Notes under the pieces: generated by a model
Databases searched by the model: none
Told to the model about the DNA's origin: nothing
What the model saw: only the letters and a program-made list of their open reading frames with translations
Origin: Acidobacteriota bacterium
GTDB taxonomy: Bacteria; Acidobacteriota; UBA6911; RPQK01; JAJDTT01
DNA: 64,000 bases
Direction of reading: 5' to 3'
NCBI GenBank assembly: GCA_965217775.1
Contig: CBDCJH010000002.1
Span: forward strand, 4,064,001 to 4,128,000
Shown: piece by piece, positions 7,659-42,195 of the stretch
Layout: every line of letters begins with the position of its first letter
Position numbering within the stretch: position 1 is the first letter of the stretch
Program-made: the position numbers and the translations under genes

Positions 7659-7679
7659 AAGAGGGGACACCTTCTCTAC
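7659..7679 (+). repeat. polar hairpin site, degenerate copy 1
   Basis: AAGAGGGGACACCTTCTCTAC (loop shortened), 9 nt after the hicA stop. Confidence 0.55.
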
Positions 7680-7738
7680 CTCGCGCCCGGGTTCAGCACA
7701 TCCCCGAGCCGAACTCACCCACCGATTCGGATCGAAGA

Positions 7739-7763
7739 GGGTGCCCACAAGGGGCGCCCCTAC
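7739..7763 (-). repeat. GTAG-family REP-like palindrome
   Basis: Reverse complement reads GTAGGGGCGCCCCTTGTGGGCACCC. Confidence 0.6.
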
Positions 7764-7813
7764 GGAAAATTCTTCGTCCATTTGCACAAGATTTTGGGAG
7801 TAACACGGACCAA

Positions 7814-7836
7814 GGAGAAGGGGACAGTTACCTTCT
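7814..7836 (+). repeat. polar hairpin site, copy 2
   Basis: GGAGAAGGGGACAGTTACCTTCT, 11 nt beyond the TonB receptor stop. Confidence 0.85.
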
Positions 7837-7847
7837 GGCGCCGTGTC

Positions 7848-10505
7848 CTACTTGCCCCAGGCGTAGCGGATGCGCACGTAGTAGTACGCGCCGTTGAAAC
7901 CCCAAGGTGTGTACTCGCTGTACTTCTCCCCGACCGACATCGCTCGCGCACTCTCGTCGGGATAGGTGTTGAGCAGGTTCTGGGCGCCGACCGCCAGCGT
8001 CACGCCCTCGGAGAGGTCGATGCTGCCCTCCACGTCGACGATCGGGCGCCCGTCGAAGAAGCCCTGCTCGATACCGGCGGACGGGATGAACGCCTGCCGG
8101 AACCCGCTGTCCCAGTCGTACCAGCCGCCATAGTAGCTCACCCGCCCGAGCAGCCGGGCACGCCCGAGGAGCTGGTTGATGCCGGCGCTCCAGCGCACCC
8201 GCGGCAGCGCGTAGGCGTACTCGGCCAGCCGCCGGTCGCTGAGCAGCCCCTTCTCGTTGTCGGTCACCTCGGTGTCGGTGTAGTTGAAGACGGCGCTGAA
8301 CACCGTGTTGCCGCGCAGCGCAATTGGCGTGTAGGTCGAGACCACGTCGATCCCCTTCGACCGCGTCGAGAACGCGTTGGTGAAGAAGCGGAAATTCTTC
8401 AGGTCGCGGGCGCTCTCGATGTCTTGCGCCAGCAGGTTCTCGATCTCGGCGTCCTGCAGGCTGAAGTTGCTCGTGATGCCGATCCGGTCGGCGACGTTGA
8501 CGAGGAAGTAGTCGGCGCTGAAGTTGAACGGCCCGGTGTCGAAGACGACGCCGGTGGTGTAGTTGACGGAGCGTTCAGGCTCCAGCGGCACGCCGCCGCG
8601 CAACGCCGCCACCGGCGAGATCGACGGGATGACGCCGTTGTTGACCAGGTCGCCGATGGCCGGGTCAAATTGGGTCGAGATGTTGAAGCCGTTCTGCTGG
8701 CCGGGTGTGGGCGCGCGGAACCCGCTGCTGACGCTGGCGCGCACGAAGGCGAAGCGGGCGGAGACCTTGCCGTTCGTGGTGGTGCCGAAGTCCTCGAAGT
8801 GCTCGACCCGCACCGCACCGCCCAGGGTCCATTCGCCGTCCACGTCGTTCATTTCGACATCGCCGTACGCCGCGACGTTGTCCCGGTTCCAGGTGCCGGC
8901 GGCGAGCGGACCGTAGCCGAAAAAGCCGTTGGAGCCGGCCGAGAATCCCTGTCCCCGGCCGTAGGGGCCGACCGTCCACGACGCCGGCTCGCCCTCGGTG
9001 GTCTGGTACTGCTCGTCGCGCCACTCCGCGCCGGCCGCGACGTTGACCCTGTCCGTCGCGGCGTAGGAGACATCGAAGTTCACCCCGAGCTCCCGCTGCC
9101 GGTTGCTGCCGAGATCGAAGGCGGTCGGAGTCTCGTAGCCGAGCGAGGCGTTGACGGTGTTGCGGATGAAGAGGTCGGTCTCGTGGGCGCCGACCGAGAC
9201 ACTCGCATCCCAGATGACGCCGGCGCCGGTGAAGCCGCGGATGCCGCCCACTATCGACATGTCCTGCGCCTCGCCGCCGAAGTTGGGCGTGAAGCCGCCG
9301 GGGAACCGCTCGTAGAGCGTGAAGCAGTTCGGATTTGCTGCGACCGCCGCGAGCGCATCGCCGTCGGGGACGTTCCCGGCTATCGGCACCGTCGGGCAGT
9401 CGCCGGCGCCGGGCATCCCGGTCTCGGCCCACAGCCGGTCGCCCACGAGCAGCGTGCTGCCGCCGTCCGGGCTGAAGACCCCGCCCCGCGTATTCGGGTT
9501 GCGGAAGAAGAAGCCGCCGGTCACCCGCTTGCTCGCATAGTTGGTGTGGCCGTACAACTGCAGGCCGGTGGAGAACGTGTAACCGAAGTTCCCGAACAGC
9601 TTCAGATCGTCGTCGACCTCCGGTGAACCCCAGATCTGCGGCGTATCCGATGCGACATGCGTGTTCCCCGCGGCGAGAAGCGCGGTGGCGTCGCTACGGG
9701 GGGCGCTCCGGTTCGTCGGATTCGAGCTGCCGTATTCCAGGCTGAGGTTGGCGAAGCCGGTGGCGCCCAGCGGCAGGCCGACATTGCCGGCGACGTTGAA
9801 GGCCTCGCCGTCCCCTTCCTGAAAGGTGCCGGTGTCGAATTCGAGACTACCGCCGGAGGTGGCATCCTTAAGTTGGAAATTCATGACGCCGGCGATGGCG
9901 TCCGAGCCGTACTGCGCCGCCGCGCCGTCGCGCAAGACTTCGACTTGGCGCAGCGCGATGGCCGGGATGGCGGAGATGTCCGGGCCCTGCGAGCCGTAGG
10001 CCACGCCGTTGCCGCCGTGCCAGTCGATGATCGACGAGCGGTGGCGTCGCTTGCCGTTCACCAGGACCAGCGTGTGGTCCGGCGCCAGGTTGCGAAGCAT
10101 CGCCGGCCGGACCACCGTCGACGCATCGCTGATCGGCTGCGTGTTGACGTTGAACGAGGGGATGACCGTGCGCAGTTGTTCCTGCAGATTGACGGCGCCC
10201 TGGTTGGTGAGGTCGGACGTCGAGAGCACGTCGACCGGCACCGGCGACTCCGCAACGGTCCGCGGCCGGGCACGGGAGCCGACGACGACGGTCTCCTCAG
10301 TAAGCCCGTCGAGCAGCACCTTGAGCTCGTCAGGGGACAGCCCCATCGCCTGGATTTCGGCCACCGAAATGCCGAGCGCGTGGCTGAGCGCTTCGTACTG
10401 TTCCGCCGTCAGGTCTTCCTGTGCGAACGCCGGAGCCGGCAAACCGGCGACGAGTGCAATGAGCAGACTCGATAAGAACACGATGAACATTGATCGATGC
10501 GTCAC
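7848..10505 (-). CDS. TonB-dependent receptor
   Basis: GTG 10505 with AGGAGG RBS; signal peptide; ETVVVGSR TonB box; plug motifs TLVLVNGKRRH and VEVLRDGAAAQYGSDAIAGV; C-terminal alternating aromatic strand. Confidence 0.93.
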   Translation of the reverse strand: MTHRSMFIVFLSSLLIALVAGLPAPAFAQEDLTAEQYEALSHALGISVAEIQAMGLSPDELKVLLDGLTEETVVVGSRARPRTVAESPVPVDVLSTSDLTNQGAVNLQEQLRTVIPSFNVNTQPISDASTVVRPAMLRNLAPDHTLVLVNGKRRHRSSIIDWHGGNGVAYGSQGPDISAIPAIALRQVEVLRDGAAAQYGSDAIAGVMNFQLKDATSGGSLEFDTGTFQEGDGEAFNVAGNVGLPLGATGFANLSLEYGSSNPTNRSAPRSDATALLAAGNTHVASDTPQIWGSPEVDDDLKLFGNFGYTFSTGLQLYGHTNYASKRVTGGFFFRNPNTRGGVFSPDGGSTLLVGDRLWAETGMPGAGDCPTVPIAGNVPDGDALAAVAANPNCFTLYERFPGGFTPNFGGEAQDMSIVGGIRGFTGAGVIWDASVSVGAHETDLFIRNTVNASLGYETPTAFDLGSNRQRELGVNFDVSYAATDRVNVAAGAEWRDEQYQTTEGEPASWTVGPYGRGQGFSAGSNGFFGYGPLAAGTWNRDNVAAYGDVEMNDVDGEWTLGGAVRVEHFEDFGTTTNGKVSARFAFVRASVSSGFRAPTPGQQNGFNISTQFDPAIGDLVNNGVIPSISPVAALRGGVPLEPERSVNYTTGVVFDTGPFNFSADYFLVNVADRIGITSNFSLQDAEIENLLAQDIESARDLKNFRFFTNAFSTRSKGIDVVSTYTPIALRGNTVFSAVFNYTDTEVTDNEKGLLSDRRLAEYAYALPRVRWSAGINQLLGRARLLGRVSYYGGWYDWDSGFRQAFIPSAGIEQGFFDGRPIVDVEGSIDLSEGVTLAVGAQNLLNTYPDESARAMSVGEKYSEYTPWGFNGAYYYVRIRYAWGK

Positions 10506-11011
10506 TTCCGGTTTCCTCCTTCGGCTTCGGCCGGAGGGCATCGCCTCCTGCCCGCTTGTGGTCTGGTTTGGGTAGACGTGAGAAAGTGGGACGAACAGAG
10601 TTGGAATTGAAAAGGACCCAAGATTATGAACCCAGATTATTCATGGGACATGTTGATACGGGCTTCCAACCCGGCGTTTTCGTGCGGTCGCAGCCCGGTT
10701 TCTCTTGAAGCTCTGTCGATTCGACTGAATCGGCTCGAAAACAGGACGATTGAACCAGTCATAAACCGTTTACCGGCCAGGGGGGGCGTCACCCGCCGAC
10801 AGGTTGACTTTCCGGTGAGAAATTCCCACCGTTTCGGTCCCTTCCACGGGCCCGATGCCTCCTCCGTCCACTATCCCGGCGCCCAGGACACCCGCGCCAG
10901 TCTCTTCCACAACCGCTTCCAGTCCGTCGCCCCTTGACTGATGACGAAAATCAATGCCACTCTTCCTTTTAGAAGACTTCCCTCAAAACACCGTATGCAC
11001 TTTCTGAATCG

Positions 11012-11075
11012 AGTATAGCAAGGATCCAGTGAAATTAGCATTAAAATAAGGGTCGATATGGTGATTATTTGGTGA
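11012..11075 (-). promoter_or_regulatory. putative activator-dependent promoter with phased TCAC boxes
   Basis: GTGA at 11029, 11061, 11072 on the + strand; TG.TATACT -10 lies 15 nt downstream of the start of the last box on the - strand. Confidence 0.5.
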
Positions 11076-11188
11076 AATCTCAACTCCTACACTGACCGTC
11101 GACTCTCTTCCCATGTGGCTGGCGCGAGATGGGAAGACATTTCTCGGCCAGGATGCAAGAGGACCTCGCGTCGGGGCACGGCGCAGTT

Positions 11189-11946
11189 CGCGACACTCCG
11201 ACGCCGTTGGGAATTCGTTATTCATTCACCGGCGACGGAGAGCCTGCCAAGCTGTCCATCGTCTTGGGCGGGCAGTGCGAGAGCGAACAGAGGGAGTAGC
11301 GTCCCCCGTCGCAGCCTCCGGCTATGAGTGTAGCCAACCGTCCTGTGGTCTATCCTCGTGACTATGGAGATCCGTCCCGCAGCACTAGCCGATCTCGAAA
11401 CCGTCGTTGAATTCAACGCGCGTCTGGCGCAGGAATCGGAAGGAGTGCATTTGGACAAGGACCGACTGAGAGCGGGGGTCGCTGCGCTGTTGCGTGACCA
11501 GACACTGGGCCTTTACTTCATAGCGGAGTCAGAGTCCGGCCCGGCCGGGCAGTTGGCGCTGACCTACGAATGGAGCGACTGGAGGAACAGCATGTTCTGG
11601 TGGCTTCAAAGTGTCTACGTGCGCCCGGAATTCCGACGCGAAGGGGTTCTACGCGCTCTTTACGGCCACGTTCTGGAGCTGGCGAAGGACCGCGGCGTGT
11701 GCGGGATCCGCCTGTATGTCGAGAAGGAAAACCGTACTGCTCAAGAGGCGTACCGACGGCTGGGAATGGCCCGGGCAGTGTTTCACATGTACGAAGTTGA
11801 TTTCGTGATCGTCCGAGAGCCCTAAGTTGTGACTCGGTGGACGGAGTGAGGTAGGCGGACGCTGCAAGAGCGCCTCCCACAGTTTCATCGCGGCATTTCC
11901 ATGCGGGCTTTCCGGCAGCAAGGAACGACGGTAGCAACGTTCAAGG
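11189..11946 (+). repeat. 758-bp segmental duplication, copy 1 (GNAT module)
   Basis: Near-identical to 19576-20333 (offset 8387). Confidence 0.95.
11358..11825 (+). CDS. GNAT-family N-acetyltransferase
   Basis: TYEWSDWRN, SVYVRPEFRREG motif A, LYVEKEN..AQ..Y..LGM. Confidence 0.9.
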   Translation: MTMEIRPAALADLETVVEFNARLAQESEGVHLDKDRLRAGVAALLRDQTLGLYFIAESESGPAGQLALTYEWSDWRNSMFWWLQSVYVRPEFRREGVLRALYGHVLELAKDRGVCGIRLYVEKENRTAQEAYRRLGMARAVFHMYEVDFVIVREP

Positions 11947-11948
11947 GC

Positions 11949-11976
11949 GGGAGAAGGGGACAGTTACCTTCTCTAC
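11949..11976 (+). repeat. polar hairpin site, copy 3
   Basis: GGGAGAAGGGGACAGTTACCTTCTCTAC; starts 3 nt after the end of the duplicated GNAT segment. Confidence 0.9.
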
Positions 11977-12047
11977 GAGTTTGTGGGGACTCAACCCCGG
12001 AAGCGGACCCGGAGCCGGCGCCCGAGCGGGTACAATTTCAACAGCGG

Positions 12048-12380
12048 ATGAGATTCCAAGCGATCCTCAAACGCAGATGTCCACGATGTTTGCGTGGGCA
12101 GGTTTTCGCCTCGGCATTTCGTATGAGGCGGAACTGCGGTGTCTGTGACCTGAGATTCGAACGTCAGGAACCAGGGTACTTTGTGGGTGCCCTGTACTTC
12201 GCCTACGGGTTGGCGGTGCTGTTGGGCGCTCCTCCTGCTGCCTATCTCTGGTGGCAGGGATTTTCGATGGGAGTTAACGCGCTTGTGATCACGGGAGAAC
12301 TGATCATTTTATCTCCCTGGATCTTTCAGTACTCTCGAATCCTGTTCCTGCACTTGGACCAGCTATTCGATCCCACGTAA
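12048..12380 (+). CDS. DUF983-family membrane zinc-ribbon protein
   Basis: RCPRC..G, C..C, EPGYFVGA, two TM segments, YSR; TACAAT -10 just upstream. Confidence 0.8.
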   Translation: MRFQAILKRRCPRCLRGQVFASAFRMRRNCGVCDLRFERQEPGYFVGALYFAYGLAVLLGAPPAAYLWWQGFSMGVNALVITGELIILSPWIFQYSRILFLHLDQLFDPT

Positions 12381-12404
12381 CCCGGGTGCGCTATTCAAGC
12401 CTCC

Positions 12405-12431
12405 CGAAGAAGGGGACAGTTGCCTTCTCTC
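12405..12431 (+). repeat. polar hairpin site, copy 4
   Basis: CGAAGAAGGGGACAGTTGCCTTCTCTC; homology to the vapC locus (41272 onward) starts right after it. Confidence 0.85.
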
Positions 12432-12471
12432 GAGCGAACTAGGAGCCGGACAGAGACTGCAAGGGTCGTGC

Positions 12472-12866
12472 TCAGCGGTTCTGAAGGAAAGGATTGACGA
12501 TCGTGAGATTTCCGATGCGACGCCCGGCTCGAAGGTCTTCTTTCACCAGGATGTCGCATCGGGCCTCGAGGGCCGAGGCAACAATCAGCGAGTCGTAGAA
12601 ACTGAAACCGTGCACTCGGGCGAGATCGACGGCTGCGGAATGAGTATTGACCGCGATGGGGCGAATGGGGCCGAGCGCTGTTTGCAGGCCGGCAACCGCT
12701 TCGGCGATCAGACTCCAATCAAGGCCGAACTTGTGGTGGAGAACAGAGGTGGACTCGTTCAGGACTTGTACGCTGACGGTGCCGCCAGCCAAGATGAGCT
12801 GGCGCGCGACCTCACTCTTGGGGCCCGTTCCTTGAGCATAGATCAGTATGTTCGTGTCGAGAAACG
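12472..12866 (-). pseudogene. vapC: VapC/PIN toxin copy lacking its start codon and antitoxin
   Basis: Colinear with 41312-41706 (FLDTNILIYA...YDSLIVASAL); first codons replaced by the hairpin site; NEF>NES and TED>KED changes. Confidence 0.85.
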
Positions 12867-12870
12867 TAGT

Positions 12871-12896
12871 GGGAGAAGGGGACAGTGACCTTTTCT
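12871..12896 (+). repeat. polar hairpin site, copy 5
   Basis: GGGAGAAGGGGACAGTGACCTTTTCT, 4 nt from the vapC truncation point. Confidence 0.88.
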
Positions 12897-12955
12897 TGTT
12901 CTCGCCGTTTTGAAAGATCGGCTCGCGGGAACGGACCATCTTCGTGTGTGACCGC

Positions 12956-16826: not shown

Positions 16827-17110
16827 TAATTTCTTCGATCGATTATTTTTCTTGGCGGGTGACCCCAAAACGGATCACGATCCGGGGTCCGACGAAGATG
16901 TGAGAGGGAGGAGCACCGAAGCCCCGGTTCGATGGAATCAAGTGCCAGGGCGGCGCAGCTTCAGGCTGAGTGCGGACGGAACAAGGCCGGGGGCCACCGG
17001 TTCGGAGGTTCTTTCGTCAGATCTGTGTCACCGAACGAGCCAGGCGATGAGCCGCCCAGTTTTGGCGGTCGTATTGCTCCCGGCTCTGATCCGGTTCACA
17101 ACTGAGCGAG

Positions 17111-17136
17111 GGGAGAACAGGACAGTCACCTTCTCT
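17111..17136 (+). repeat. polar hairpin site, copy 6
   Basis: GGGAGAACAGGACAGTCACCTTCTCT inside the 5' end of the amine oxidase gene. Confidence 0.7.
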
Positions 17137-17229
17137 GCGCGTTTCCAGAACGTGAGCGGTCCCCAGTTCGAGCCCCCAAAAAACGAGGTTCTGGCGTGGC
17201 ATCCCGGCTCCGTGATGCCGCGCAAGGCC

Positions 17230-17393
17230 TACCAGCCCGTGGCAAAAGTCATCACGGCATTCGACCGTCCCTGCATCCCGGCGGACGGCGTTGCGATTCG
17301 GGCACATACTCCCGGTATGCACCCGAATCGCGCCTTGTCCGGCGGGCGCAGGAACGGTCTCGGTGCTCGCGGGACTTTCACCACGGACTGCTA
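17230..17393. mobile_element. MITE family A inserted in-frame in the amine oxidase gene
   Basis: TA at 17230 and 17392 (162 apart); removal restores RKAYAIVRRG. Confidence 0.92.
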
Positions 17394-19160
17394 CGCCATA
17401 GTGCGCCGCGGCAAGCACGCGTTCGAGGCGATCGTCGATCTCACCGCGGACCAGGTTGCATCCTGGTCACCGCTGACGGACGTCCAGCCGAACTGGACTG
17501 AAAAGGATTTCAAAGCTGTAGTCGACAAAGTGCTGGAACACCCGGACTTCATCTCCGGGCTCGCGGCTCGCGGAATCACCGACCCTACGTTCCTCGACTG
17601 CAGCACGGGACCGCCGGGCTACTTCGGAACGGAGGAAGAGCGCGGTCGGCGCATTGGCAACGTCCGGTGCTCCGAGCCCCGCGGAGTCCGAAACACTTGG
17701 ACGCGGCAGGTCGAGGGCCTGTCTGCGGTGGTCGATCTCGACTCGGAGGAGGTGCTGCGGGTCGTGGACGACGGTCCCGTCCCGATCACCAGCACCGACG
17801 GCGACTTCGACCGCACGACGCTCAAACGCCCCCGCGAGGTTCCGGGCCCGCTCGACACGCGTCAGCCGCTCGGTCCCGGATTCGAACTCGACGGGTACCG
17901 GGTACGTTGGCAGAACTGGCGATTCCACCTGCGGCCCGACCAACGCGTCGGTGCGGTCCTCTCACTGGTGAGCTACCAGGAAAAACCCGGGGGACCAGCC
18001 CGATCAGTGTTGTACCAAGGGCATTTGTCAGAAATATTCGTTCCTTATATGGACCCCTCGTTCGGATGGTACCGACGTAACTTCCTCGACGCCGGCGAAT
18101 TCATGGCCAGCGGGTTGGCGAAGGCTCTACTTCGCGGCCGTGACTGTCCCGACTACGCCGCGGATCTCGACACCGTGATCAGCAACGAGAAGGGCCGCCC
18201 GCGAACAGTGCCGGACACGATTTGTGTTTTCGAGAGGGAAACGGGTGATCCTGCTTGGCGCCATTGGTCTTCCGAGCTGCCGGACAGTCGGCGGAGCCGC
18301 GACCTCGTCGTGCGCGTTGGCGCCGTAGTCGGCAACTACGATTATCTGCTCGACTGGATCTTCCGCCAGGACGGTGCGATCGAGGTGCGCGTGGGTGCCA
18401 CCGGTATCCTGGAAGTAAAGGCAACCGAGGCGGAGAACGCATCGCAGGCAGAACCGGGCGCCGATGCCTATGGCCGATTCGTGGATCGCAATATAGTGAC
18501 GGTGAATCACGACCACTACTTCAGCTACCGCCTCGACCTGGACGTCGACGGAACCAATAACCGCTTCGTCACCGACCGCCTGGTCACGCGGCGGCTGCCC
18601 GAAGGGCACCCCCGCCGCAGCCTGTGGGTCCGGTAGGAGCAGGTCCCGGCCAGCGAGCACGACGCGCGCCTCGACATCGACTTTGAACGTCCGGCTCTGT
18701 GGCGTGTTCTCAGCAACGACCGGCGAAACTCCTCCGGCTATCCAACGAGCTTCCAGGTGTTTCCCGGCAGGAACGCCAACGCGCTACTGTCGGAAGACGA
18801 CTACCCGCGTCGGCGCGCCGGCTTCATCGATCACCACCTCTGGGTAACGCCGCAGCGGGACGGGGAACGTCATGCCGCCGGCGATCACCCGACCTTGAGC
18901 GAGCCCGGCCAAGGGCTGCCCGCGTGGACGGCAGCCGACCGGCCGATCCGTGACACGGACATTGTCGTCTGGCACACCATCGGCATGCATCATCTACCGC
19001 GCTCCGAGGACTGGCCGGTTATGCCGACGATGTGGTACGGCTTCGAGCTTCGGCCCTTCGACTTCTTTGACCGCAACCCTGCGCTCGACCTCCCCTGAGC
19101 GCTGAAGTGCCGGCCATTCCCCGCTCGTCCGCAAGCTCCGACGATACCGGCTCCGATGCG

Positions 19161-31831: not shown

Positions 31832-31832
31832 C

Positions 31833-34800
31833 TTAAGCCTTGGCCTCCGCCTTGGCCGACACATAGGCGGCACCACTCGCGAACCGCGCCAGGCGCTCGG
31901 AGAGTTTCTCCCCCGCTTCCCCTTGCATGGAAAGCCCGTTGGCAAAGGTCAACTGGAACCCCGTCTCGATACTCTTGGAACTTGCGTCCCGAAGCTGAGC
32001 TTGCAAAAACTCCCTCACCGGCTGAGCGTCCGGGACCGGGCCTCGGAACTCCAGCTCGAAGGATCCACCCTCGCGGGTTTCATAACCGCCCATGATCGTG
32101 ACGATCTTGTCCGCCCCGGATACGGCGCCCACGGCGCCGAAGAGCCGGAAGGCGTCGCCTGCCTCGAACATGCGGATGGTCAAGACTTCGATGCTCTCCA
32201 CCTTCTTCGCCCGTGCCTGCTCCCACAACCGGATCAGGGCCTCCTTGAGAATGCCTTCCGCGATAAAAGACTGAGTCGCTGCTCCGGGCGGATCGCTTCC
32301 ACCCTGCTCTGAGACGGAGCCTATACCTCCCCCCCCCACATACGTCCCGGCTGATCCTCCCGGTTTCGTCCCCCCCGGTTCATCGGCCTTCTTCCTTGGC
32401 CAGATGCCGGCATTCTTCGCATAGGCCATGGTGAAGATCACGGATTGCTCATCGATCATGATGCCGGCCGCCGGATCGCCCGGTCCGAACAGCAACTCTC
32501 CGCGCCGATAGACGTATTCGCTCTGCTCGACGCCGCGCCGCACGCCACGAATGAAGACGTTGTCGCCAATCAGGATCGGGAGCGCGGGATCGAGCCTGAA
32601 CTCGTCCCGCAACGCCAGCGTGGTGATCTGACCCTTTTTGAGCGGTGTCCGGTCGCGCACATAAGCGGGGGAGTCCGGCTCGTCCTCGGACAGGCGCAGC
32701 TTGTTGAGATCGCGTAATGCCCGCACGATCTGCTGCTGGCCCGCTCCCGGCTGATCGGAGGTGGAATGGATGTCGATCGCCGTGTGGGCCAGATCGACCC
32801 TACTCGCGCCGACCCGGTTGCGGGATGGATAGAACACGTGCCGGTAACACTGTTGAATGGCGATCGCGAGTTCCTGCTCGGATCGGGCTTCCAGCTCGCG
32901 CACCTTGGCCTGCTGGTGCTCCGCCAGATCGATGAGGCGTTCCGGCTTTTTCAGTTCCCGCAGCGCCAGACGATGATAGGTCTTGCGGCGCATCTCCGCC
33001 TTGCGGGCTCCGTCCGCGACCACGAACACCACATGGTTCCGAAGCCTCCTCAAGGCCGAACCTTCCGAGCCTTTCCGAGTGTAGATCCGCTCGATCAAAT
33101 CGGGCACGTTCTCAACCGAGCTGCCGATGGTCAAGCCGTCATAGGACAGAACGATGAGCTTCGGCCGGCCGTCGCCGACCTCGTCGGGAACATCGAACGG
33201 CCCTCCCGGAAAGGACACCGTCTCGAACCTCTCCCCCCCGAATATCTGGCGGATGCGGTCGTTGAGCTCGGCGCGGGCTTCCCCGGCATCCACATGGCGC
33301 TCCTCGCGACGGATGATCTGGCGCAGATTGGCCTCGGCCAGAAAGCGCATCGGCGCGCCGGGGCGGTCGTCAAGGTAGGCGGAATCGGTGATGAACTTCT
33401 CGCGCGCCCCCTCGATAAAGCTGATGTCCGTCTTGGGACTCAGGATCGAATAGCGCAGCTGCTCCGGAGAAATCCCCTTGAGCGGATCGTTGAAGGCCAG
33501 CGTGTGCATGAAGATGGTGCGGGCGACATAGACTGCATACGGCGGCAGGCCACCGTGATTAAGGGCGTCGATCTCCTGCGCCAGCGCCTTCTTCCCGGCC
33601 AAACCGGCAGCAACGTCGTTGGTGATGGCCGGCAGGTAGGCGGACTGCCCGAGGCGTGTCACGATCTCCTGGCGGACGGGTTCGTAGCCGGGATCGATAT
33701 GGTGAAGATGAATCGCCGTCGCGTCCGCGGGCTGCTCCTCCCAAAGATGCGAGATGGTCCGCGCCAACAACCGCAGCATGCCGCGAACTCGCTGAAAATT
33801 GCCCAGTGTCGCCGTCTTTCCGGTCAGGGTCTCCAGCACTTCCGGATGCAGCGGGTAACTCGAGCGGAAGGTCTCCACCGTCTCCGCGCGGCCGGCCTCC
33901 TCCGACAAGGACTCCTTGTTGGCTCTCCACCGCGCCCGGTAGGCCTCCGTAACAGCGGGAATCTTGGTCTCGTCGATGAATTCGAACAGACGGCGGCGGA
34001 GCACCTGAACCGTCTCGTCCTCCTCTGTGGGGTTCAAAAGCGTCGCCTTGCGAGCCGAGACGCTTTCCGCTTCGGCCATGTGATCGGCGATGAACTGAGT
34101 TTCTTCATTGTAGGCGTCGGTGGCTCGGCCGTCCTTGCCGATCGCCAGGGTGTAGACGAGGGCGGCGTTGGGCGCGCTCTCGACAGCCTTGAACAATGAG
34201 GTCAGAAACGCCGTCAACTGATCGCGAGCATCCTCAAGGTTGCGCACCTTGCGCAGGTAAACCGAAAGTTCGTCGAGCAGAATCAGGGTCGGCTCGTCGC
34301 CGAACAACTCGCGCAGGGTCTCGGCACCCGGTGCGATGCAACTTTCGTCGCTCCTGCGAACCCGCTCGTAGCCCGCTCGCCCGGCAAGCGCATGGGCAAG
34401 CTCGCCCCAGGGAGTATAGGCGAGAAGACCTCCTTCCATCCTCCGGCCATTGGCCGGATCAGCGTTCTCACCATCGAATGCCGCAACGCGGACATGGCTT
34501 CGAGGCAAAAGGGCCGGATCGACAAACTCCGCAATGTTCGAGACGCTCTGCATTCCGTGTGCGGCATGGCACAAGGCGATCAGCCCGTGGGTCTTGCCGC
34601 CGCCGTAAGAGGTGTCGAGCCGGATAATCGACGCGATCTCCCCCCCCGCACCGGTCAGCCGCCGACACACATTGGCGAGCAGGTTCTTGAGGCCCCTGGT
34701 GGGATAGGTGTTGGCGAAGAAACGGACCGGGTCACGATATTCGGCATTTCCCGAGCCGGTCTTGATGATGACTTGGGCTAGATCCGCCGCGAAATCGGAT

Positions 34801-34868
34801 TCAGTAATCGCTCCCTTGAGAACGTCCGCTCGCGGCCGGCAGATCTCGAATAGGGTCGGGATGGTCAT
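31833..34868 (-). CDS. DUF499 AAA+ ATPase
   Basis: FAADL, FF..TYPT.GL, Walker A TSYGGGKTH, LILLDEL, SYPLHPE, FQRVRG.LRL. Confidence 0.92.
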   Translation of the reverse strand: MTIPTLFEICRPRADVLKGAITESDFAADLAQVIIKTGSGNAEYRDPVRFFANTYPTRGLKNLLANVCRRLTGAGGEIASIIRLDTSYGGGKTHGLIALCHAAHGMQSVSNIAEFVDPALLPRSHVRVAAFDGENADPANGRRMEGGLLAYTPWGELAHALAGRAGYERVRRSDESCIAPGAETLRELFGDEPTLILLDELSVYLRKVRNLEDARDQLTAFLTSLFKAVESAPNAALVYTLAIGKDGRATDAYNEETQFIADHMAEAESVSARKATLLNPTEEDETVQVLRRRLFEFIDETKIPAVTEAYRARWRANKESLSEEAGRAETVETFRSSYPLHPEVLETLTGKTATLGNFQRVRGMLRLLARTISHLWEEQPADATAIHLHHIDPGYEPVRQEIVTRLGQSAYLPAITNDVAAGLAGKKALAQEIDALNHGGLPPYAVYVARTIFMHTLAFNDPLKGISPEQLRYSILSPKTDISFIEGAREKFITDSAYLDDRPGAPMRFLAEANLRQIIRREERHVDAGEARAELNDRIRQIFGGERFETVSFPGGPFDVPDEVGDGRPKLIVLSYDGLTIGSSVENVPDLIERIYTRKGSEGSALRRLRNHVVFVVADGARKAEMRRKTYHRLALRELKKPERLIDLAEHQQAKVRELEARSEQELAIAIQQCYRHVFYPSRNRVGASRVDLAHTAIDIHSTSDQPGAGQQQIVRALRDLNKLRLSEDEPDSPAYVRDRTPLKKGQITTLALRDEFRLDPALPILIGDNVFIRGVRRGVEQSEYVYRRGELLFGPGDPAAGIMIDEQSVIFTMAYAKNAGIWPRKKADEPGGTKPGGSAGTYVGGGGIGSVSEQGGSDPPGAATQSFIAEGILKEALIRLWEQARAKKVESIEVLTIRMFEAGDAFRLFGAVGAVSGADKIVTIMGGYETREGGSFELEFRGPVPDAQPVREFLQAQLRDASSKSIETGFQLTFANGLSMQGEAGEKLSERLARFASGAAYVSAKAEAKA

Positions 34869-35151
34869 GGTTCTCACTCTACCTGACTTTCTGAAATTCT
34901 GGCTCCGCGACGATTGGTTCCAGCCAATCCCGCCCGGCGTGCCGCAGGGGCAACGCCTGGGGGCCTATAGCTTACTCATGGTCTAAGGAAGATCATCGAT
35001 CCTGGGGCCTCTGACGGCCGCGAATTTACCATGGTCCCACGATAATTCTGCTTGACGGCGCTCAGGCGACATTTTGGTGGTTGGTGGCCTCAGCCGCGAT
35101 CCAGGCCAGCCTCCGTGGGCAGTCCTTCCTGCGGCGATTTCTACCATTAGA

Positions 35152-36150
35152 TTAATTAAATTTTCTCCCTCGGACCTGCCGAGTTCTCGTTCTTCTTCGG
35201 GAACCCGGCGAATCGAAAGACGGCTCCTCCTCCCCATTCAGCCACGCTTTCATTCCCAAGAAGACTCTCGGCAGTGTCGTGCCATGGTTTGCGAATTCCG
35301 AACTCAACGCTTCCCCAAACGTGGGGAACTCACTGCGGATCAGACGATCATGTATCTCCTCCCCGAATTTGTCCGCCAAGTATTTCAGAATGAAACTGTC
35401 GCCAAAGTAAACGTCCCCGCATGTAATCTCAGGATGATTGCCGGTGAGTGACTCGCAACAGCCGATTTTTGATCCGGCATTTCTGCGTACTTCTTCCAAT
35501 AGTTTTTCGAGCCCCTGCATCCGGTTGGACTCAGTCGTGTTGAACAACCCCTCGTATTCTGCCAAGCCCTCCGCGATCCATGGCGCTGGCGCTTTATAGA
35601 AATAGCCCCAAATGCTCAGTTCGGCCGCATGAGTGATTTCGTGGACCAAGTTCTTGGCATGATAATCGATGGGCGGAAGCTGGAGCCGACCCCAGGCCGG
35701 CCGTGTCTGCCACTCAGGATGGGACGGTGCAAGATATGGAATCCATGCGAAATAGCTTCCATCGTCTTCTTGGGAGCAGCACTTGAATGATGTCAGGCTC
35801 GTCTTGGCATCGTCGTTTGGATCGGGGACGAGGACGATGAAAAGGTGGAGGGGTGCGGTGAGATACCCTCTACCCTCTTCGTACCGTACCGCAGTGAATT
35901 CCGATACGGAATATTTGTCTTGCATGACTTGGAGTCCATGGTCAATCCAATCCGCAACGAATGGGACATCCTGTTCAAACTCTGTCGTGTAGCAAATCGA
36001 GTATCGTTCGTAATCCGATCTCAACCAATCGACATGATCGTAGGAAGATTTGTTGTAAGTGAGATTATCGCATCCGGCATCGACCCGACTGACGACCACG
36101 GCTGAGAGAATGGGAAAGACGCATAATACTAACGACCATCGAATTCTAAC
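35152..36150 (-). CDS. secreted HEXXH metallopeptidase-like protein; natural start codon apparently lost at the hairpin site
   Basis: Signal-like RIRWSLVLCVFPILSAVVV, LVHEITH...WIAEGLAEY gluzincin motif; no ATG/GTG between the site and the signal peptide; low GC. Confidence 0.65.
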   Translation of the reverse strand, partial: VRIRWSLVLCVFPILSAVVVSRVDAGCDNLTYNKSSYDHVDWLRSDYERYSICYTTEFEQDVPFVADWIDHGLQVMQDKYSVSEFTAVRYEEGRGYLTAPLHLFIVLVPDPNDDAKTSLTSFKCCSQEDDGSYFAWIPYLAPSHPEWQTRPAWGRLQLPPIDYHAKNLVHEITHAAELSIWGYFYKAPAPWIAEGLAEYEGLFNTTESNRMQGLEKLLEEVRRNAGSKIGCCESLTGNHPEITCGDVYFGDSFILKYLADKFGEEIHDRLIRSEFPTFGEALSSEFANHGTTLPRVFLGMKAWLNGEEEPSFDSPGSRRRTRTRQVRGRKFN

Positions 36151-36182
36151 CGGGAGAAGGGGACAGTTACCTTCTCTACTCT
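36151..36182 (+). repeat. polar hairpin site
   Basis: CGGGAGAAGGGGACAGTTACCTTCTCTACTCT. Confidence 0.9.
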
Positions 36183-36275
36183 GACCGGTCAGAACGTGCC
36201 GCTCAAGGACGTCCATTACCTGGCTGGACACGCCCACCCCGCACCACCCAGAGATCTACGATCGGCGAGCCTGGG
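36181..36275 (+). pseudogene. tyrosine recombinase C-terminal remnant
   Basis: QNVPLKDVHYLAGHAHP then frameshifted TTQ / IYDRR, i.e. box II His and catalytic Tyr. Confidence 0.65.
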
Positions 36276-36334
36276 ACCTCTCACGGGCTCGTTTTTCAGG
36301 ATCTCGGGGAATTTTCGCCACAAGCGGTTCAACG

Positions 36335-37033
36335 TTAACATGCTGTCAGAGTTCTCCTTCGGCCGTCCCTTCTCCGCAGGTTCAAGGAGTTCTGGCGCAC
36401 GAAGCTGTCCCAAGACTCGTAGCATCGAATCGAAGCCTTCTTCAGATGCGGCGCACCGGGAGTACGCTTCAGCTTTCCGGTCAATAGGAACATGCTCTCG
36501 TTGATCCTCCTCGTAATCGGGTAGGGTTCGCGGTTGGGAATAAACTTTGGGTCAAGAAACCCCTTCTCGATATTTCTGGGAGTATGTTTGTTGTTGGCTT
36601 TCCAGAACTCTCTCTCCCTTGGCCCAATCGGGATGATCTCACCTTGTTCGAATGCCTTTGACCACCGGCGGAATTCCTCTTTCAACTTCTCAAACAAATC
36701 CTTCGATACGATGAACACATCCAAATCGGAACATGTGACCGAAAATTTTTTGCCTAGCTTCTTCGGAGCTAGCGACGCTCCAACACGACCGCTGCCCACA
36801 ATGCCAATTTCCTTTGCATGCACATCCAGAAAGAAACTCAGCCAAGAGCGGATGGACTCGTAGATCGCCGGACACTCTCGGAATGCGTAAGGGATACCCT
36901 CCGACAGCCAGAGGCGAACGAGCGCTATCCGTGCCGGCTCTCCACCTCGCTCTGCAGCATCCAATACAAAACATGGGTTCGGGTATGGACCAGTGAGATT
37001 TCTCAGTGGGTCCGGAATGCTAAATGGTTCCAT
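36335..37033 (-). CDS. Pol-beta superfamily nucleotidyltransferase-like protein
   Basis: IGIVGSGRVG.S...SDLDVFIVS hG[GS]..DxD motif; overlaps the upstream gene by 31 nt. Confidence 0.7.
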   Translation of the reverse strand: MEPFSIPDPLRNLTGPYPNPCFVLDAAERGGEPARIALVRLWLSEGIPYAFRECPAIYESIRSWLSFFLDVHAKEIGIVGSGRVGASLAPKKLGKKFSVTCSDLDVFIVSKDLFEKLKEEFRRWSKAFEQGEIIPIGPREREFWKANNKHTPRNIEKGFLDPKFIPNREPYPITRRINESMFLLTGKLKRTPGAPHLKKASIRCYESWDSFVRQNSLNLRRRDGRRRTLTAC

Positions 37034-38850: not shown

Positions 38851-38882
38851 CGGGAGAAGGGGACAGTTACCTCCTCTACTCT
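38851..38882 (+). repeat. polar hairpin site
   Basis: CGGGAGAAGGGGACAGTTACCTCCTCTACTCT. Confidence 0.9.
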
Positions 38883-41009: not shown

Positions 41010-41190
41010 TCGCGTGCTCCACTCAGCTTGCAGGGTGAACCTCCAGGCCGAAGATCTCGCCATCGACCCCGCTGTGAATCGGTCCCCGGCGGCGCACCGG
41101 CCTCACCGTCCTCGAGACGCTGGATTTCGTAGCCCATGTTGAACCCTTGAAGCACCGCGCACCCTCACTTTGTCCGGTCGTTACGCAAAC

Positions 41191-41216
41191 CGGAGAAGGG
41201 GACAGTACCCTTCTCT
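41191..41216 (+). repeat. polar hairpin site
   Basis: CGGAGAAGGGGACAGTACCCTTCTCT. Confidence 0.85.
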
Positions 41217-41311
41217 TTCAGTGATGATCCTATCCAAATTCGGCCACCGGAGATTCGATCTCCAATTTCACCAGCGAATTTGGAGCCGGACAGGGACAGC
41301 AAAGGTAGTGT

Positions 41312-41713
41312 TCAGCCGTTCTGAAGGAAAGGATTGACGATCGTAAGATTCCCGATACGACGCCCTGCCTGAAGGTCTTCCGTCAACAGGATATCGCATC
41401 CGGCTTCGAGGGCCGAGGCAACAATCAGCGAGTCGTAGAAGCTGAAACGGTGCACTCGAGCGAGGTCGACGGCTGCGGAATGGATTTCGACGCCGATGGG
41501 CCGAACGGGGCCGAGCGCCGTTTGCAAATCGGCAACCGCCTCGGCGATCACACCCCAATCAAGCCCGAACTTGCGGTGGAGAACAGACGTGAATTCGTTC
41601 AGGACTTGTACACTGATCGTGCCGCCAGCCAGGATGAGCTGACGGGCGATCTCACTCTTGGGACCCGTTCCTTGGGCATAGATCAGTATGTTCGTGTCGA
41701 GAAACGCGGTCAC
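41312..41713 (-). CDS. vapC: VapC-family PIN-domain toxin
   Basis: FLDTNILIY, QVLNEF, YDSLIVASAL, LTEDL acidic tetrad. Confidence 0.92.
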   Translation of the reverse strand: MTAFLDTNILIYAQGTGPKSEIARQLILAGGTISVQVLNEFTSVLHRKFGLDWGVIAEAVADLQTALGPVRPIGVEIHSAAVDLARVHRFSFYDSLIVASALEAGCDILLTEDLQAGRRIGNLTIVNPFLQNG

Positions 41714-41940
41714 CTGGCGTTGGCTTCATTTCGATCAAAGGTATAGCCATCGGGCAGGGTCCAAGCGCGCTCTTTCATCCGCTCGACCGCCCTCGCTCGG
41801 CGCTCATCCCGCGCGAGGGCAATCCGCGTGGGCGCCGCGGACACCACTTCCAACTCGTCTCCGGGTTTCAGGCCAAGGTCCTCAACTAATGCCTTGGGCA
41901 ACCGTACAGCGAGACTATTGCCCCATTTGGAGACACGCAT
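41710..41940 (-). CDS. vapB: AbrB/MazE-type antitoxin
   Basis: VSKWGNSLAVRLP..L...GD; 4-nt overlap with vapC. Confidence 0.9.
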   Translation of the reverse strand: MRVSKWGNSLAVRLPKALVEDLGLKPGDELEVVSAAPTRIALARDERRARAVERMKERAWTLPDGYTFDRNEANAR

Positions 41941-42169
41941 GATCTACCCTATGATATCCTTAAACTCCCGGATATCATAAGCGTTGCCAATTGTAGTGTC
42001 AAATCTGAGGAGTCTTGCCTCCGAGTCCTCAGCGTCGTCTCGGACTCGCTGAAGTCGGGCGTTTTGACGCCGAGTGGACTCAGGCTCTCAGACGAAAACT
42101 CTTTCAACAGAAAAGGTCTCGACCTTCCCTCTCCTCGGCCCGTTCCCGCCGGCGCGACGCTGCCAGCGC

Positions 42170-42195
42170 GGAGAAGGGGCCAGTCACCTTACTCT
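42170..42195 (+). repeat. polar hairpin site
   Basis: GGAGAAGGGGCCAGTCACCTTACTCT, followed by the same flank as the copy at 11949. Confidence 0.8.

Follow-up and report, generated by a model that had tools for sequence, protein, structure and literature searches.

The repeat that punctuates an accessory region of this acidobacterial contig is cognate to a lineage-specific Y1-HUH tyrosine transposase of the RAYT/TIRYT type. Comparison with sister genomes shows that the right-hand flank mostly remains joined to the repeat, while the left-hand flank changes. We put at about one half the probability that the transposase shuffles the modules led by the repeat through cutting and joining at that site. 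The system belongs to the RAYT/TIRYT repeat world as a member or variant, and not to the novel kind for which the first-pass annotation had taken the array.

In the window (the whole 64-kb stretch that was analysed), ten matches to GAGAAGGGGACAGTTACCTTCTC are found at up to three mismatches, all on the + strand; 100 dinucleotide-preserving shuffles yield none. The repeat is 25–26 nt long and polar: purines dominate its left arm and pyrimidines its right arm, with the core AAGGGGACAGTC between them. A position weight matrix trained on 176 genomic repeat copies places copies at 7814, 11950, 12406, 12872, 17112, 19214, 19272, 36153, 38853, 41192 and 42170, the last of which is weaker (score 19.9). 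At scores of 10 or more, minus-strand hits are just lower-scoring shadows of the + strand sites, and the scan places no repeat outside 7814–42195. The co-oriented sites of the first-pass annotation hold: ten are solid and one is decayed, all lie on the + strand, and none is expected by chance; the site that it gave at 7659 is the decayed one (7650–7680, +), recognised from its sequence, with a core internally deleted by about 4 nt and a matrix score of 2.7. The hairpin of its description is weak: the best copies form a modest stem-loop (−5.6 to −6 kcal/mol, z about −2 to −3). Neither decayed copies nor the variants that flank transposase genes fold better than shuffles, a test for covariation among repeat copies gives the hairpin no support, and the arms of one repeat pair barely better than arms of different repeats (4.13 vs 3.89 ± 0.07 bp).

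Genes were called with a rough caller of our own making. On its left the variable region is bordered by a copy of MITE-A (6956–7119, +; further copies at 17230–17393, 42302–42465 and 56108–56271, with 215 in the genome), inside which synteny with genome G007 stops, at 6959. A module at 7237–7653, present in G001, G004 and G005, ends just short of the decayed repeat. The repeat at 7814–7839 (+; located by pattern and matrix, as are those at 11950, 12872, 17112, 36153 and 38853) lies 9 nt past the stop codon of a TonB-dependent receptor gene (7848–10490, −; Pfam Plug and TonB_dep_Rec_b-barrel), the cargo of a repeat-led module. This module (7815–10630) is 96–97% identical in G006 and G007 and has a different left-hand context in each; it begins at repeat 7814 in G007 and lies within a different array in G006. 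Its right bound is a 325-nt multi-copy element (10631–10955, +) with 13 near-full-length genomic copies at 95–100% identity and many copies in relatives. A GNAT segment (11186–11949, +; self-BLAST, Pfam Acetyltransf_1) is the first copy of a 766-nt duplication (11186–11951 and 19573–20338, 97.8% identical) and is ended by the first bases of the next repeat (11950–11975, +). That repeat heads the DUF983 module (11976–12405, +; a weak Pfam match), whose homology with G007 spans 11943–12405 and halts at the next repeat. The same repeat with its right flank recurs, next to unrelated left flanks, in G006 (L064, 10641), in G007 (L063, 13088) and at 42170 in the window, where self-BLAST aligns 11950–12064 with 42170–42282 from the repeat onward.

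A PIN/VapC segment (12433–12866, −; Pfam PIN domain) lies between two co-oriented repeats, one on its left (12406–12431, +; pattern, matrix and self-BLAST) and one in the interval between vapC and an M60 peptidase gene (12872–12897, +). The segment is 88% identical to 41273–41706 and is found at other places in G002, G003 and G007. The repeat at 17112–17137 (+) stands upstream of a copper amine oxidase gene that is split into two ORFs (17062–18636 and 18757–19098) and truncated at its 5′ end, as had been noticed earlier; its N2 domain is matched at profile positions 60–86 of 87 only. At 19161–19297 (+) the repeat appears as about four 5′ half copies and, after them, two full ones (19214, 19272); the full copies form a perfect 58-nt tandem, and half copies and tandem together span 19161–19317. 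A copy of MITE-B (19406–19571, +; second copy at 3340–3504, 51 in the genome) abuts the start of the second GNAT copy. GmrSD, a gene without assignment and an AAA_15/21 ATPase constitute one module (20346–24357, −; Pfam), 99% identical in G006, where its end precedes a repeat by 10 nt. An 11.8-kb repeat-free block (24358–36152, −) encoding an SNF2-PLD helicase, a DUF1156 methylase, DUF7680 and DUF499 is missing from the G006 locus and ends at an exact consensus copy of the repeat (36153–36178, +). Homology with G006 and G003 begins at 38883, 5 nt past the copy at 38853–38878 (+). The near-palindromic copy at 41192–41217 (+; score 27.1 on the + strand, 19.6 on the −) lies upstream of a vapBC pair with PIN and MazE-like Pfam matches, and the weaker copy at 42170–42195 (+; matrix and self-BLAST) heads the second DUF983 leader copy (42197–42282). 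Self-BLAST thus confirms the reported breakpoints at repeats of the GNAT duplication, the vapC copy and the DUF983 leader. The reported toxin–antitoxin, defence and host-interaction cargo is also recovered (PIN/VapC, GmrSD, the AAA_15/21 ATPase, DUF1156 methylase, DUF499, SNF2-PLD helicase, M60 peptidase and TonB receptor). Pfam and NCBIfam give no match in support of the supposed peptidase (35152–36237) or integrase remnant (36181–36504), and neither is confirmed.

Genome-wide, about 258 repeat copies form 62 clusters. Both strands are used overall, yet the copies are clustered rather than evenly dispersed, and the polarity first noticed in the window extends to the genome: 129 of 152 adjacent non-transposase pairs lie on the same strand (77 ± 6 in permutations, maximum 99 in 10,000), as do 57 of the 71 pairs more than 1 kb apart (36 ± 4.2 expected). 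MITE-A, taken as a control, has no orientation bias (44/95 same-strand pairs, 47.3 expected), and only 23 of its 215 copies have a repeat within 3 kb. The majority orientation of an array is independent of replichore (two plus and two minus in R1, four plus and five minus in R2). Repeats that lie away from transposase genes are single copies arranged in co-oriented arrays, within variable hot spots rich in defence and toxin–antitoxin genes. Amplification of the core extends to all six same-genus genomes in which it was counted (183 in G000, the genome of the window, and 102–167 in G001, G002, G003, G005 and G006, with controls at 7 or fewer) and to G023 (98 vs 4), but not to the sister genus (13 vs 23).

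The enzyme linked to the repeat is a Y1-HUH transposase of the RAYT type, 311–313 aa long, with 11 full copies and one fragment in the genome. It matches Pfam Y1_Tnp at 37.3 bits (cut-off 23) and NCBIfam REP_Tyr_transpos at E 1.7e-13 over profile positions 3–144 of 146. Across an alignment of 21 sequences, with identity down to 52%, residues H63, H65, Y162 and N166 do not vary, and some homologues carry the JGI name RayT. The first-pass annotation had proposed looking for a Y1-HUH/RAYT gene beside motif copies, and these 11 genes, flanked by inverted copies of the motif, supply it. Both flanks carry inverted repeats at the seven transposase loci examined in G000. In related genomes, repeats lie upstream at 48/48 transposase loci (89/92 on +) and downstream at 45/48 (88/100 on −), and the bracketing repeats face outward with their 5′ edges. 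Some homologues at merely 44–58% identity are still flanked by the 10-mer, L157 for one on both sides. The core GGGGACAG fits GGGGWSAS, the published repeat consensus of TIRYT/TIRtron elements, which the annotation had rightly named. None of the 11 transposase genes lies in the window; about 156 kb separates the window start from the end of the nearest RAYT gene upstream. Window-type repeats (GACAGT[CT]AC) account for none of the 51 transposase-proximal copies in G000, so the array repeats could be orphans; in relatives they are a minority of the transposase-flanking copies (11/100 downstream, 1/92 upstream). At least three transposase copies occupy orthologous positions in G000 and G006, and the transposase genes themselves are therefore not very mobile.

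The window's locus is a variable hot spot in sister genomes. Junctions in two arrays were compared between G000 and G006 over 23 homology blocks. For nine blocks the start is no more than 10 nt from the 5′ edge of a repeat (seven of these in both genomes), five more begin at a 3′ edge, and ten finish at a repeat edge. Against a chance of about 1–2% per boundary, the block starts give a binomial p of 3e-10, a value obtained with no matched intergenic-point or MITE control, from relatives' loci selected for being repeat-rich and with BLAST, which runs through any shared repeat and draws block ends towards repeat edges. With that qualification, synteny breaks are enriched at the motif relative to chance, and in sister genomes modules are gained, lost and reordered with breaks at the site, as the first-pass annotation had envisaged. 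In a third array the module order is a,c,b,d as against a,b,c,d, and it is inside this array that the window's TonB module lies in G006. Both flanks are still adjacent in G000 for 6 of 113 relatives' repeats (again with no matched intergenic-point or MITE control), and flank fates differ in 71, with the right flank only found for 33, the left only for 20 and both at different places for 18.

Flank of 60 nt or more is shared by 46 repeat pairs, on the right alone in 37 of them, on the left alone in 4 and on both sides in 5; manual grouping of the one-sided pairs leaves about 18 right and 4 left independent families (p = 0.004). The skew is smaller in the whole-genome flank test (33 vs 20) than in this pair test. 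Clean cassette exchange would give equal left-only and right-only pair counts. Right-only pairs have the whole repeat in common (arm identity 0.84/0.88 vs 0.62/0.52 in random pairs), and in about 14 of the 37 the right-hand homology halts at the next repeat. A truncated module copy adjoins the 5′ edge of the next repeat, and 5′ edges are also the exact positions of a filler insertion of 64 nt and of several stutters of half-repeats. Breakpoints are nonetheless scattered and mark no single phosphodiester bond: some coincide with the 5′ edge, others lie at −17, within the repeat or on its 3′ side (+2 to +8). Of the site of cutting and joining that had been postulated, the link to an enzyme encoded elsewhere is supported. 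No circle, excision or cleavage was seen, and apparent repeat joints in short contigs of public runs have 26-nt sides that are the repeat itself.

Selfish repeats, spread by the transposase or amplified in tandem, could also pile up where insertions are tolerated (e.g., at accessory-island junctions) while MITEs or insertion sequences, phage or island integrases and illegitimate recombination move the modules, with co-orientation resulting from local copying. This is a possible account, which we hold to be clearly less probable than shuffling by the transposase. Most repeats are intergenic (234/258, 91%), adjacent pairs within arrays are more alike than random pairs (arm identity 0.77/0.73 vs 0.62/0.52), and sub-variants are array-specific, both of which fit local copying. 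There are tandems and stutters of half copies, same-strand repeats stand in dense, gene-free blocks at 30–200 nt spacing in G023, two other arrays contain integrase fragments, and several window junctions also hold the two MITE families and the 325-nt element. Against this account, no site that differs by the presence of the repeat alone, with both flanks conserved, is found among the 113 repeats, where two "empty sites" look artefactual. Homology that starts at the repeat's first base in several independent contexts and the right/left asymmetry of shared flanks also argue against passive accumulation, as does MITE-A, which is similarly abundant and neither clustered nor co-oriented.

An unlikely alternative is that the 25-nt repeats are mere patches of identity between which host homologous or microhomology recombination deletes, duplicates and translocates modules, with no site-specific enzyme. 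It would suit breakpoints that fall at the repeat yet not at one nucleotide, as well as hybrid-looking repeats with mismatched arms (e.g., G000 4393831), and in Salmonella REPs mark the joints of tandem duplications. A mismatched stretch of 25 nt is, however, a poor RecA substrate. Such recombination is strand-blind and should use inverted copies, whereas the arrays are about 85% co-oriented; it should give symmetric left and right outcomes, whereas the skew is towards right-flank linkage; and the outer 5′ edge, with filler or half-copy stutters, is the place of many junctions, which do not fall within shared sequence.

It is very improbable that the repeat is a gene's own signal, moving along with it as a transcription terminator, a hairpin that stabilises mRNA or a binding site for a protein. 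The right-hand gene points towards the repeat in 67/105 cases (p = 0.006), array 3 repeats lie 34–50 nt past stop codons, and E. coli REPs have been discussed as 3′UTR elements; all four gene-orientation classes are nevertheless present (47, 27, 20 and 11), no T-run follows the repeat, its folding energy is weak or absent, it has no Rfam match, and the link to transposase genes and the changing left flanks would be left unexplained. Co-oriented sites between short gene modules, often at ORF 3′ ends, recall cassettes served by an integrase, but a genuine integron, or a site for some other tyrosine or serine recombinase, has next to no probability, being contradicted by the placement of PF00589 (26 matches in a six-frame genome search, none in the window and none consistently beside arrays) and by the Y1-HUH protein as the enzyme consistently linked to the site, a 25-nt sequence in whose logo no GTTRRRY/RYYYAAC core pair is seen.

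Shuffling of repeat-led modules by the transposase would proceed on a single DNA strand. The enzyme would nick at the 5′ edge of a repeat, sometimes a few nucleotides 3′ of it, and would remain bound to the 5′ phosphate of the repeat. This phosphate could then be joined to the 3′-OH of another nick, usually beside another same-strand repeat, and modules composed of a repeat and its right flank would be deleted, copied or moved. Within this proposal, arrays would stay co-oriented because the active form exists on one strand only. The positions of the nicks are modelled on known RAYTs: TnpAREP is described as cleaving 5′ or 3′ of REPs and performing strand transfer (PMC8266576). Nunvar (2010) proposed that, when a RAYT dimer cuts two top-strand REPs, the module lying between them could be circularised. 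The outcome would resemble an integron cassette array, and of the integron-like array without attC first suggested, the polar array stands, no integrase or attC is involved, and the enzymatic joining is probable to the degree given at the outset. Unlike that of an integron, the chemistry here would be that of an HUH enzyme, and neither attC nor IntI takes part.

The repeat that punctuates the window is a polar element with a conserved unit of 25-26 nt, consisting of a purine-rich arm, the core AAGGGGACAGTC, and a pyrimidine-rich arm. The window contains ten consensus matches at no more than 3 mismatches, all on the + strand, versus none in 100 shuffles. A weight matrix built from the 176 exact-core copies in the genome places repeats, likewise on the + strand, at 7814, 11950, 12406, 12872, 17112, 19214, 19272, 36153, 38853, 41192, and 42170; apart from weaker reverse-strand shadows of these sites, nothing else in the 64-kb window scores 10 or above. 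The first-pass annotation had described a motif confined to this strand, which the scan confirms, and had listed a copy at 7659, which proves to be decayed (matrix score 2.7). From 19161 to 19317, half copies are followed by a perfect 58-nt tandem that holds two full repeats. Several breakpoints that had been proposed by inspection reappear when the window is compared with itself: the GNAT duplication stops at the repeat at 11950, the vapC copy is flanked by the repeats at 12406 and 12872, and the second DUF983 leader opens with the repeat at 42170. Searches lent no support to the “peptidase” and “integrase remnant” labels attached to the region near 36150-36500. Rfam returns no match across the entire window at the gathering threshold and, at E of 1 or less over 6900-7900, a single match to a lncRNA that is spurious. 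No tRNA genes were found in the window, and thus there is no tRNA-linked island border.

The cargo and the other small elements of the window are varied. A copper amine oxidase gene (17062-18636 and 18757-19098) is 5'-truncated and split into two ORFs, likely a pseudogene, and its former 5' end is now occupied by a repeat and a copy of the element MITE-A. Four genes on the minus strand at 25124-34877 (an SNF2 helicase with a PLD domain, a DUF1156 methylase-like protein, DUF7680, and DUF499) look like a DISARM- or BREX-related defence system; the block lies within an 11.8-kb repeat-free stretch that is missing at the corresponding locus of the sister genome, G006. MITE-A is 164 nt long with terminal inverted repeats and is found at 6956-7119, 17230-17393, 42302-42465, and 56108-56271, with a partial copy at 45500-45582. 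The genome holds 215 near-full-length MITE-A copies (112 +, 103 -) in a near-uniform spread; elsewhere in the family the element is found at 90-98% identity, and it has a very high summed depth in the metagenome contigs examined. The MITE-like MITE-B (166 nt, inverted ends; 3340-3504 and 19406-19571) has 51 genome copies and, even in the sister genus (G009-G014), is found at about 89-95% identity. A 325-nt element (10631-10955, and 10628-11187) is present in 13 genome copies at 95-100% identity and in many copies in the relatives G002 and G006; it has no match in Pfam.

Genome-wide, the repeat is abundant and its sequence is conserved mainly in the core. The 6.43-Mb genome (two contigs, C1 and C2; 62% G+C) carries 258 copies at a matrix score of at least 14 (139 minus, 119 plus, double calls removed) in 62 clusters, whereas a block-shuffled chromosome gave 4. 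In the sequence logo the core GGGGACAG is invariant or almost so, and among the 115 copies of the logo there is neither conservation outside the 25-26-mer nor a conserved target or flanking motif. The consensus forms a 7-bp stem of -5.6 to -6 kcal/mol, and perfect window copies fold at the same energies with z of about -2 to -3; decayed copies and the variants flanking the transposase fold no differently from shuffles. Covariation in the stem was not detected, as pair columns match no better than shuffled partners, and arms within one repeat pair over 4.13 bp versus 3.89±0.07 for cross-paired arms, a slight gain. Beside many genomic repeats lie half-repeat duplications (e.g., window 19161-19213 and C2 1202973, 1818605, and 1813687), in which 5' halves that end in GGGGAC immediately precede the repeat, 3' halves that begin with GTCAC immediately follow it, and some form short tandem arrays together with a few flanking bases. 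Such half-copies may point to a break or a slippage point halfway along the core. A crossover in the loop, between GGGGAC and AGTC, is likewise suggested by the half-copy stutters, yet pairs of repeats that share only their right flank share both repeat halves equally, and such a crossover is unproven.

The repeats show polarity and clustering. At a distance from transposase genes, neighbouring copies (no more than 15 kb apart) lie on the same strand in 129 of 152 cases, compared with 77±6 after permutation and a maximum of 99 in 10,000 permutations; the genome scan thus agrees with the polarity and clustering claimed from the window. The bias persists at spacings above 1 kb (57 of 71 pairs versus 36±4.2), and close pairs within 200 nt are direct in 30 cases and inverted in 5. 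As an internal control, MITE-A has 44 of 95 neighbouring pairs on the same strand, where 47.3 are expected. Same-strand runs of repeats are also present in the sister genome and in the distant G023, a genome of another family. GC skew places the origin near 4.97 Mb and the terminus near 1.65 Mb, and a replication-strand rule was rejected as the cause of co-orientation: copy counts are weakly biased, and the majority orientation of arrays shows no bias by replichore. One array of the window's genome (C2 2109500-2126500) has 12 repeats, all minus, among genes that are mostly plus, and its repeats sit 34-50 nt past stop codons. Among its cargo are two paralogous GFO_IDH_MocA oxidoreductases, a ThsB-like TIR protein, and fragments of an integrase and of DUF1156. 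Across the genome, a fixed position of the repeat relative to genes was rejected; the only tendency is for the right-hand gene to face the repeat.

The repeat and a transposase are linked. Small ++-- clusters of repeats surround a recurring gene of 311-313 aa in the window's genome, which has 11 full copies and 1 fragment that are 83-90% identical to the query (tblastn). The protein matches Pfam Y1_Tnp (PF01797; 37.3 bits, cut-off 23) and, over the full model, NCBIfam NF047646 “REP-associated tyrosine transposase” (E 1.7e-13), but with 50.7 bits against a cut-off of 80. An alignment of 21 sequences with identities down to 52% shows no variation at H63, H65, Y162, and N166, the residues of the HUH and Tyr...Asn motifs, and some sources name some of the homologues RayT. 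The AF2 model is poor (pLDDT 57), and PDB searches by sequence and by profile returned nothing relevant. Inverted repeats bracket the gene at seven loci in the window's genome. In relatives, repeats lie upstream at 48 of 48 loci (89 of 92 co-oriented, +) and downstream at 45 of 48 (88 of 100 inverted, -). A Y1-HUH/RAYT gene, which had been suggested as something to look for beside copies of the motif, thus exists, in many copies and with inverted repeats on both sides. The 10-mer also adjoins a few transposase homologues of just 44-58% identity.

The distribution of the transposase is narrow, and that of the amplified core is patchy. The family is nearly confined to Acidobacteriota MAGs: 78 of 79 homologue loci have Acidobacteriota-lineage titles (one labelled Thermoanaerobaculia, a class of that phylum), the sole exception is a Saprospiraceae MAG, and no cultured Acidobacteria are among them. 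The core is amplified only in genomes of the window's genus (102-183 matches versus controls of at most 7) and in G023 (98 versus 4); in the sister genus there is no amplification, and background levels prevail in the rest of the order. Of the 98 core copies of G023, about three quarters fall in one 70-kb region of its 3.4-Mb genome (C1 1,420,538-1,489,814), where transposase genes are surrounded by dense same-strand repeat blocks (e.g., 18 copies in 2.2 kb). Some copies of the transposase occupy conserved positions in different species. In the window's genome, array-type repeats (GACAGT[CT]AC, the type found in the window) flank no transposase gene.

Judged by alignment, the repeats mark module borders in several genomes. 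Between conserved flanks (window about 440-6429, and from 45713 onward), the locus is variable in all five genomes compared, spanning about 5 kb in G003, 18 kb in G002 and G006, and 39 kb in the window's genome (that of G007 is cut by a contig end). Every one of these genomes has a co-oriented repeat array at the locus, with overlapping modules in different order. The TonB module opens at a repeat in the window's genome and in G007 and sits in another array in G006; the DUF983 module opens with the repeat's first base in each of four contexts that have unrelated left flanks; and in G006 the GNAT and DUF983 repeats are separated by a 1.7-kb insert that includes one more repeat. At C2 4.38-4.44 Mb, a second array aligns colinearly with G006 except for additional repeat-bounded modules, and a truncated module copy in it stops at the 5' edge of the next repeat. 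In a third array, module order is swapped between genomes. Module gain and reordering in relatives thus break at repeat edges, as the first-pass annotation had expected. Segments of the small replicon C1 (a 144-kb contig) at 66-68 kb and 117-131 kb are duplicated at C2 5.225-5.227 Mb and 5.164-5.177 Mb; these repeat-rich duplicates are 87-99% identical, with the differences located at repeats, which points to exchange between the replicons.

Counts of homology-block boundaries follow the same pattern. Across two arrays, 9 of 23 blocks start within 10 nt of a repeat's 5' edge (7 of these in both genomes), 5 more start at a 3' edge, and 10 of 23 end at a repeat edge, against a random expectation of about 1-2% per boundary and with some inflation of the coincidence by BLAST extension through shared repeats. 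When 113 repeats of relatives, from loci chosen for their richness in repeats, were compared with the whole genome of the window, 6 kept both flanks adjacent with the repeat, 6 were colinear with a larger gap, 18 had both flanks in different places, 33 matched on the right only, 20 on the left only, and 28 on neither side; 2 apparent empty sites look like artefacts. A rough yardstick for this count is that sequence of the window's genome covers 24-99% of these loci. Breakpoints do not fall at one nucleotide, and a minority of the junctions are displaced from the repeat by 2-8 nt on its 3' side. MITEs, too, adjoin junctions in the window. Eight public sequencing runs from five studies contain part of the stretch; the four examined consist of short contigs, and joint sides of 26 nt, the repeat itself, are uninformative on circles, deletions, and spanning reads. 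A passive accumulation of repeats, in regions whose modules are moved by other drivers, is a possible but less likely account of these borders.

The two flanks of the repeat are not equivalent. Pooling of 369 repeats gave 46 pairs with a common ungapped flank of at least 60 nt, which lies on the right only in 37, on the left only in 4, and on both sides in 5. Grouped by hand into families, with four families that contain small indels or stutters moved to “both,” about 18 are right-only (two of them transposase flanks) and 4 left-only (binomial p = 0.004). Right-only pairs share the entire repeat, and in about 14 of the 37 the right-hand homology reaches the next repeat and then stops. The repeats around transposase genes have this geometry too, their 5' edges pointing outward. 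Filler DNA and half-repeat stutters gather at the 5' edge of the repeat. Plain homology-driven recombination, in which the repeats serve as stretches of shared sequence, is an unlikely source of the arrays.

The reading preferred here is an enzymatic shuffling of modules at the repeats. RAYTs cut single-stranded REPs 5' or 3' and transfer strands via a 5'-phosphotyrosine link, according to PMC8266576, and circularisation between two same-strand REPs is an existing model (Nunvar 2010, PMC2817692). RAYT chemistry at the 5' edge of the repeat would join the repeat and its right flank to new left partners, which would mostly lie beside other repeats, and such joining would yield co-oriented, cassette-like arrays. 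Because of the skew toward right-flank linkage and the truncated module copy, the process may be one-ended copying over variable lengths and not a clean exchange of cassettes. The probability of enzymatic shuffling is put at about 0.5, since the array-type repeats lack a neighbouring transposase gene in the window's genome, breakpoints spread over several nucleotides, BLAST inflates the edge coincidence, and the relatives' loci were picked as repeat-rich; in addition, MITEs occur at window junctions, some transposase copies keep their positions, and no event has been caught in the act, the public runs having given short contigs only. That the repeat is instead a gene-linked signal is very improbable, even with the tendency of right-hand genes to face it. 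A true integron can be dismissed almost entirely: of the 26 genomic matches to PF00589 in a six-frame search, none falls in the window and those in two other arrays are just fragments, and the conserved site measures 25-26 nt, compared with 57-141 nt for attC sites with their R''/L''-L'/R' and GTTRRRY cores; its flanks are not conserved, and its logo, on inspection, contains no GTTRRRY.

A broader form of enzymatic shuffling is entertained more tentatively. The RAYT/TIRYT enzyme and its polar repeat may possibly constitute an HUH-based counterpart of the integron, in which modules tagged by a single repeat assemble and reshuffle co-oriented islands. The repeat and the gene or genes on its right would be lifted as single strands, or copied one-endedly, and re-joined 5' of other repeats, in islands that carry defence, toxin-antitoxin (TA), and accessory genes, and this would proceed without attC and without a tyrosine recombinase. 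If so, “domesticated” RAYT-type transposases would gain a concrete genome-building role.

The mechanisms of REP dissemination are described as poorly understood (PMC8266576), and this lineage could bear both on the spread of REP-type repeats and on the benefit or harm that RAYT-type transposases bring to the cells carrying them. It is a natural experiment, with several closed genomes at about 90% identity, 100-180 polar repeats in each, many transposase copies, and repeats that border gene modules differing from species to species. Should the enzyme make the joints, there would be a second route to cassette-like defence and TA islands, by a chemistry unrelated to that of integrons, and the same genome data set could also yield the rules of cleavage. 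If it does not, there is still a clear repeat family that marks recombination hot spots, useful for reading synteny and assembly breaks in uncultured Acidobacteriota.

The motif is a member of an already known class of elements, that of TIRYT/RAYT repeat systems. The first-pass annotation had proposed a candidate gene-cassette system; what holds of it is an enzyme-linked, polar repeat that marks borders, and the system itself is of an established type. TIRtrons, as described by Di Nocera et al. 2013 (PMC3733652), consist of a gene for a RAYT-like HUH/Tyr enzyme, termed TIRYT, flanked by inverted repeats in species without GTAG REPs; several of their repeats share GGGGWSAS, the sharpest subgroup is from Acidobacteria, and the repeat families can be moderately abundant, in dimers or clusters. 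The core GGGGACAG fits this published consensus, and the earlier annotation was right that such a core had been reported beside some Y1-HUH genes; no GTAG-tagged REP is present. The likeness is drawn from the published description. In contrast to TIRtrons as that account presents them, there are here about 258 copies and 11 transposase genes in one genome, the copies are mostly single and co-oriented among genes in variable islands, and genome comparison places module breakpoints at repeat edges.

The system shares with the REPtrons of Proteobacteria, in the descriptions available (Nunvar 2010, PMC2817692; Ton-Hoang 2012; Corneloup 2021, PMC8266576), a Y1-HUH enzyme with a Y...N motif, a gene between inverted repeats, and extragenic copies in the hundreds. 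Unlike classical REPs of the GTAG super-family, the repeat has no GT(A/G)G head 5' of the palindrome, its conserved part is the “loop” rather than the foot, and the palindrome is weak. RAYTs are typically single-copy (PMC5581495), and the 11 full copies and 1 fragment here differ from the single-copy domesticated RAYT of Bertels 2017. The excess of direct over inverted close pairs (30 versus 5) sets the repeats apart from the inverted doublets of REPINs and BIMEs. Strain-specific islands of Pseudomonas are reported as “REP deserts” (PMC3390384), whereas the repeats here are concentrated in variable islands.

As in integron arrays, co-oriented recombination sites separate short, often promoter-less modules that relatives reorder, the site is often just 3' of an ORF, and the substrate would be single-stranded and strand-specific. 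Unlike integrons, there is no IntI, attI, or attC, the linked enzyme is an HUH nuclease encoded elsewhere, the modules include multi-gene blocks and gene fragments, and there are many arrays per genome. The IS200/IS605 elements (e.g., IS608) also have a Y1-HUH enzyme and both ends read on one strand; IS608 cuts 5' of its left-end and 3' of its right-end structure, which mirrors the two classes of breakpoint seen here. They differ in that the enzyme gene here is not part of the moved units, a conserved target tetranucleotide is not apparent, and the Y motif is of RAYT type (N, not Q). The one-ended rolling-circle elements IS91/ISCR use HUH chemistry with one fixed and one variable end and carry adjacent DNA; their enzyme is of the Y2 Rep-like class, and the ISCR gene lies next to its own origin. 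The chemistry is shared, and the truncated module copy in the second array matches variable-end carriage, but the enzyme class differs and there is no sign of replication-coupled transfer. The literature searched yielded no description of repeat-bounded gene modules shuffled at RAYT/TIRYT repeats, and the nearest published statement in the text available is of REP clusters reiterated in tandem with variable-length flanking DNA. What is unusual in this lineage is the combination of co-oriented, single-copy arrays at variable defence and TA islands with breakpoint evidence.
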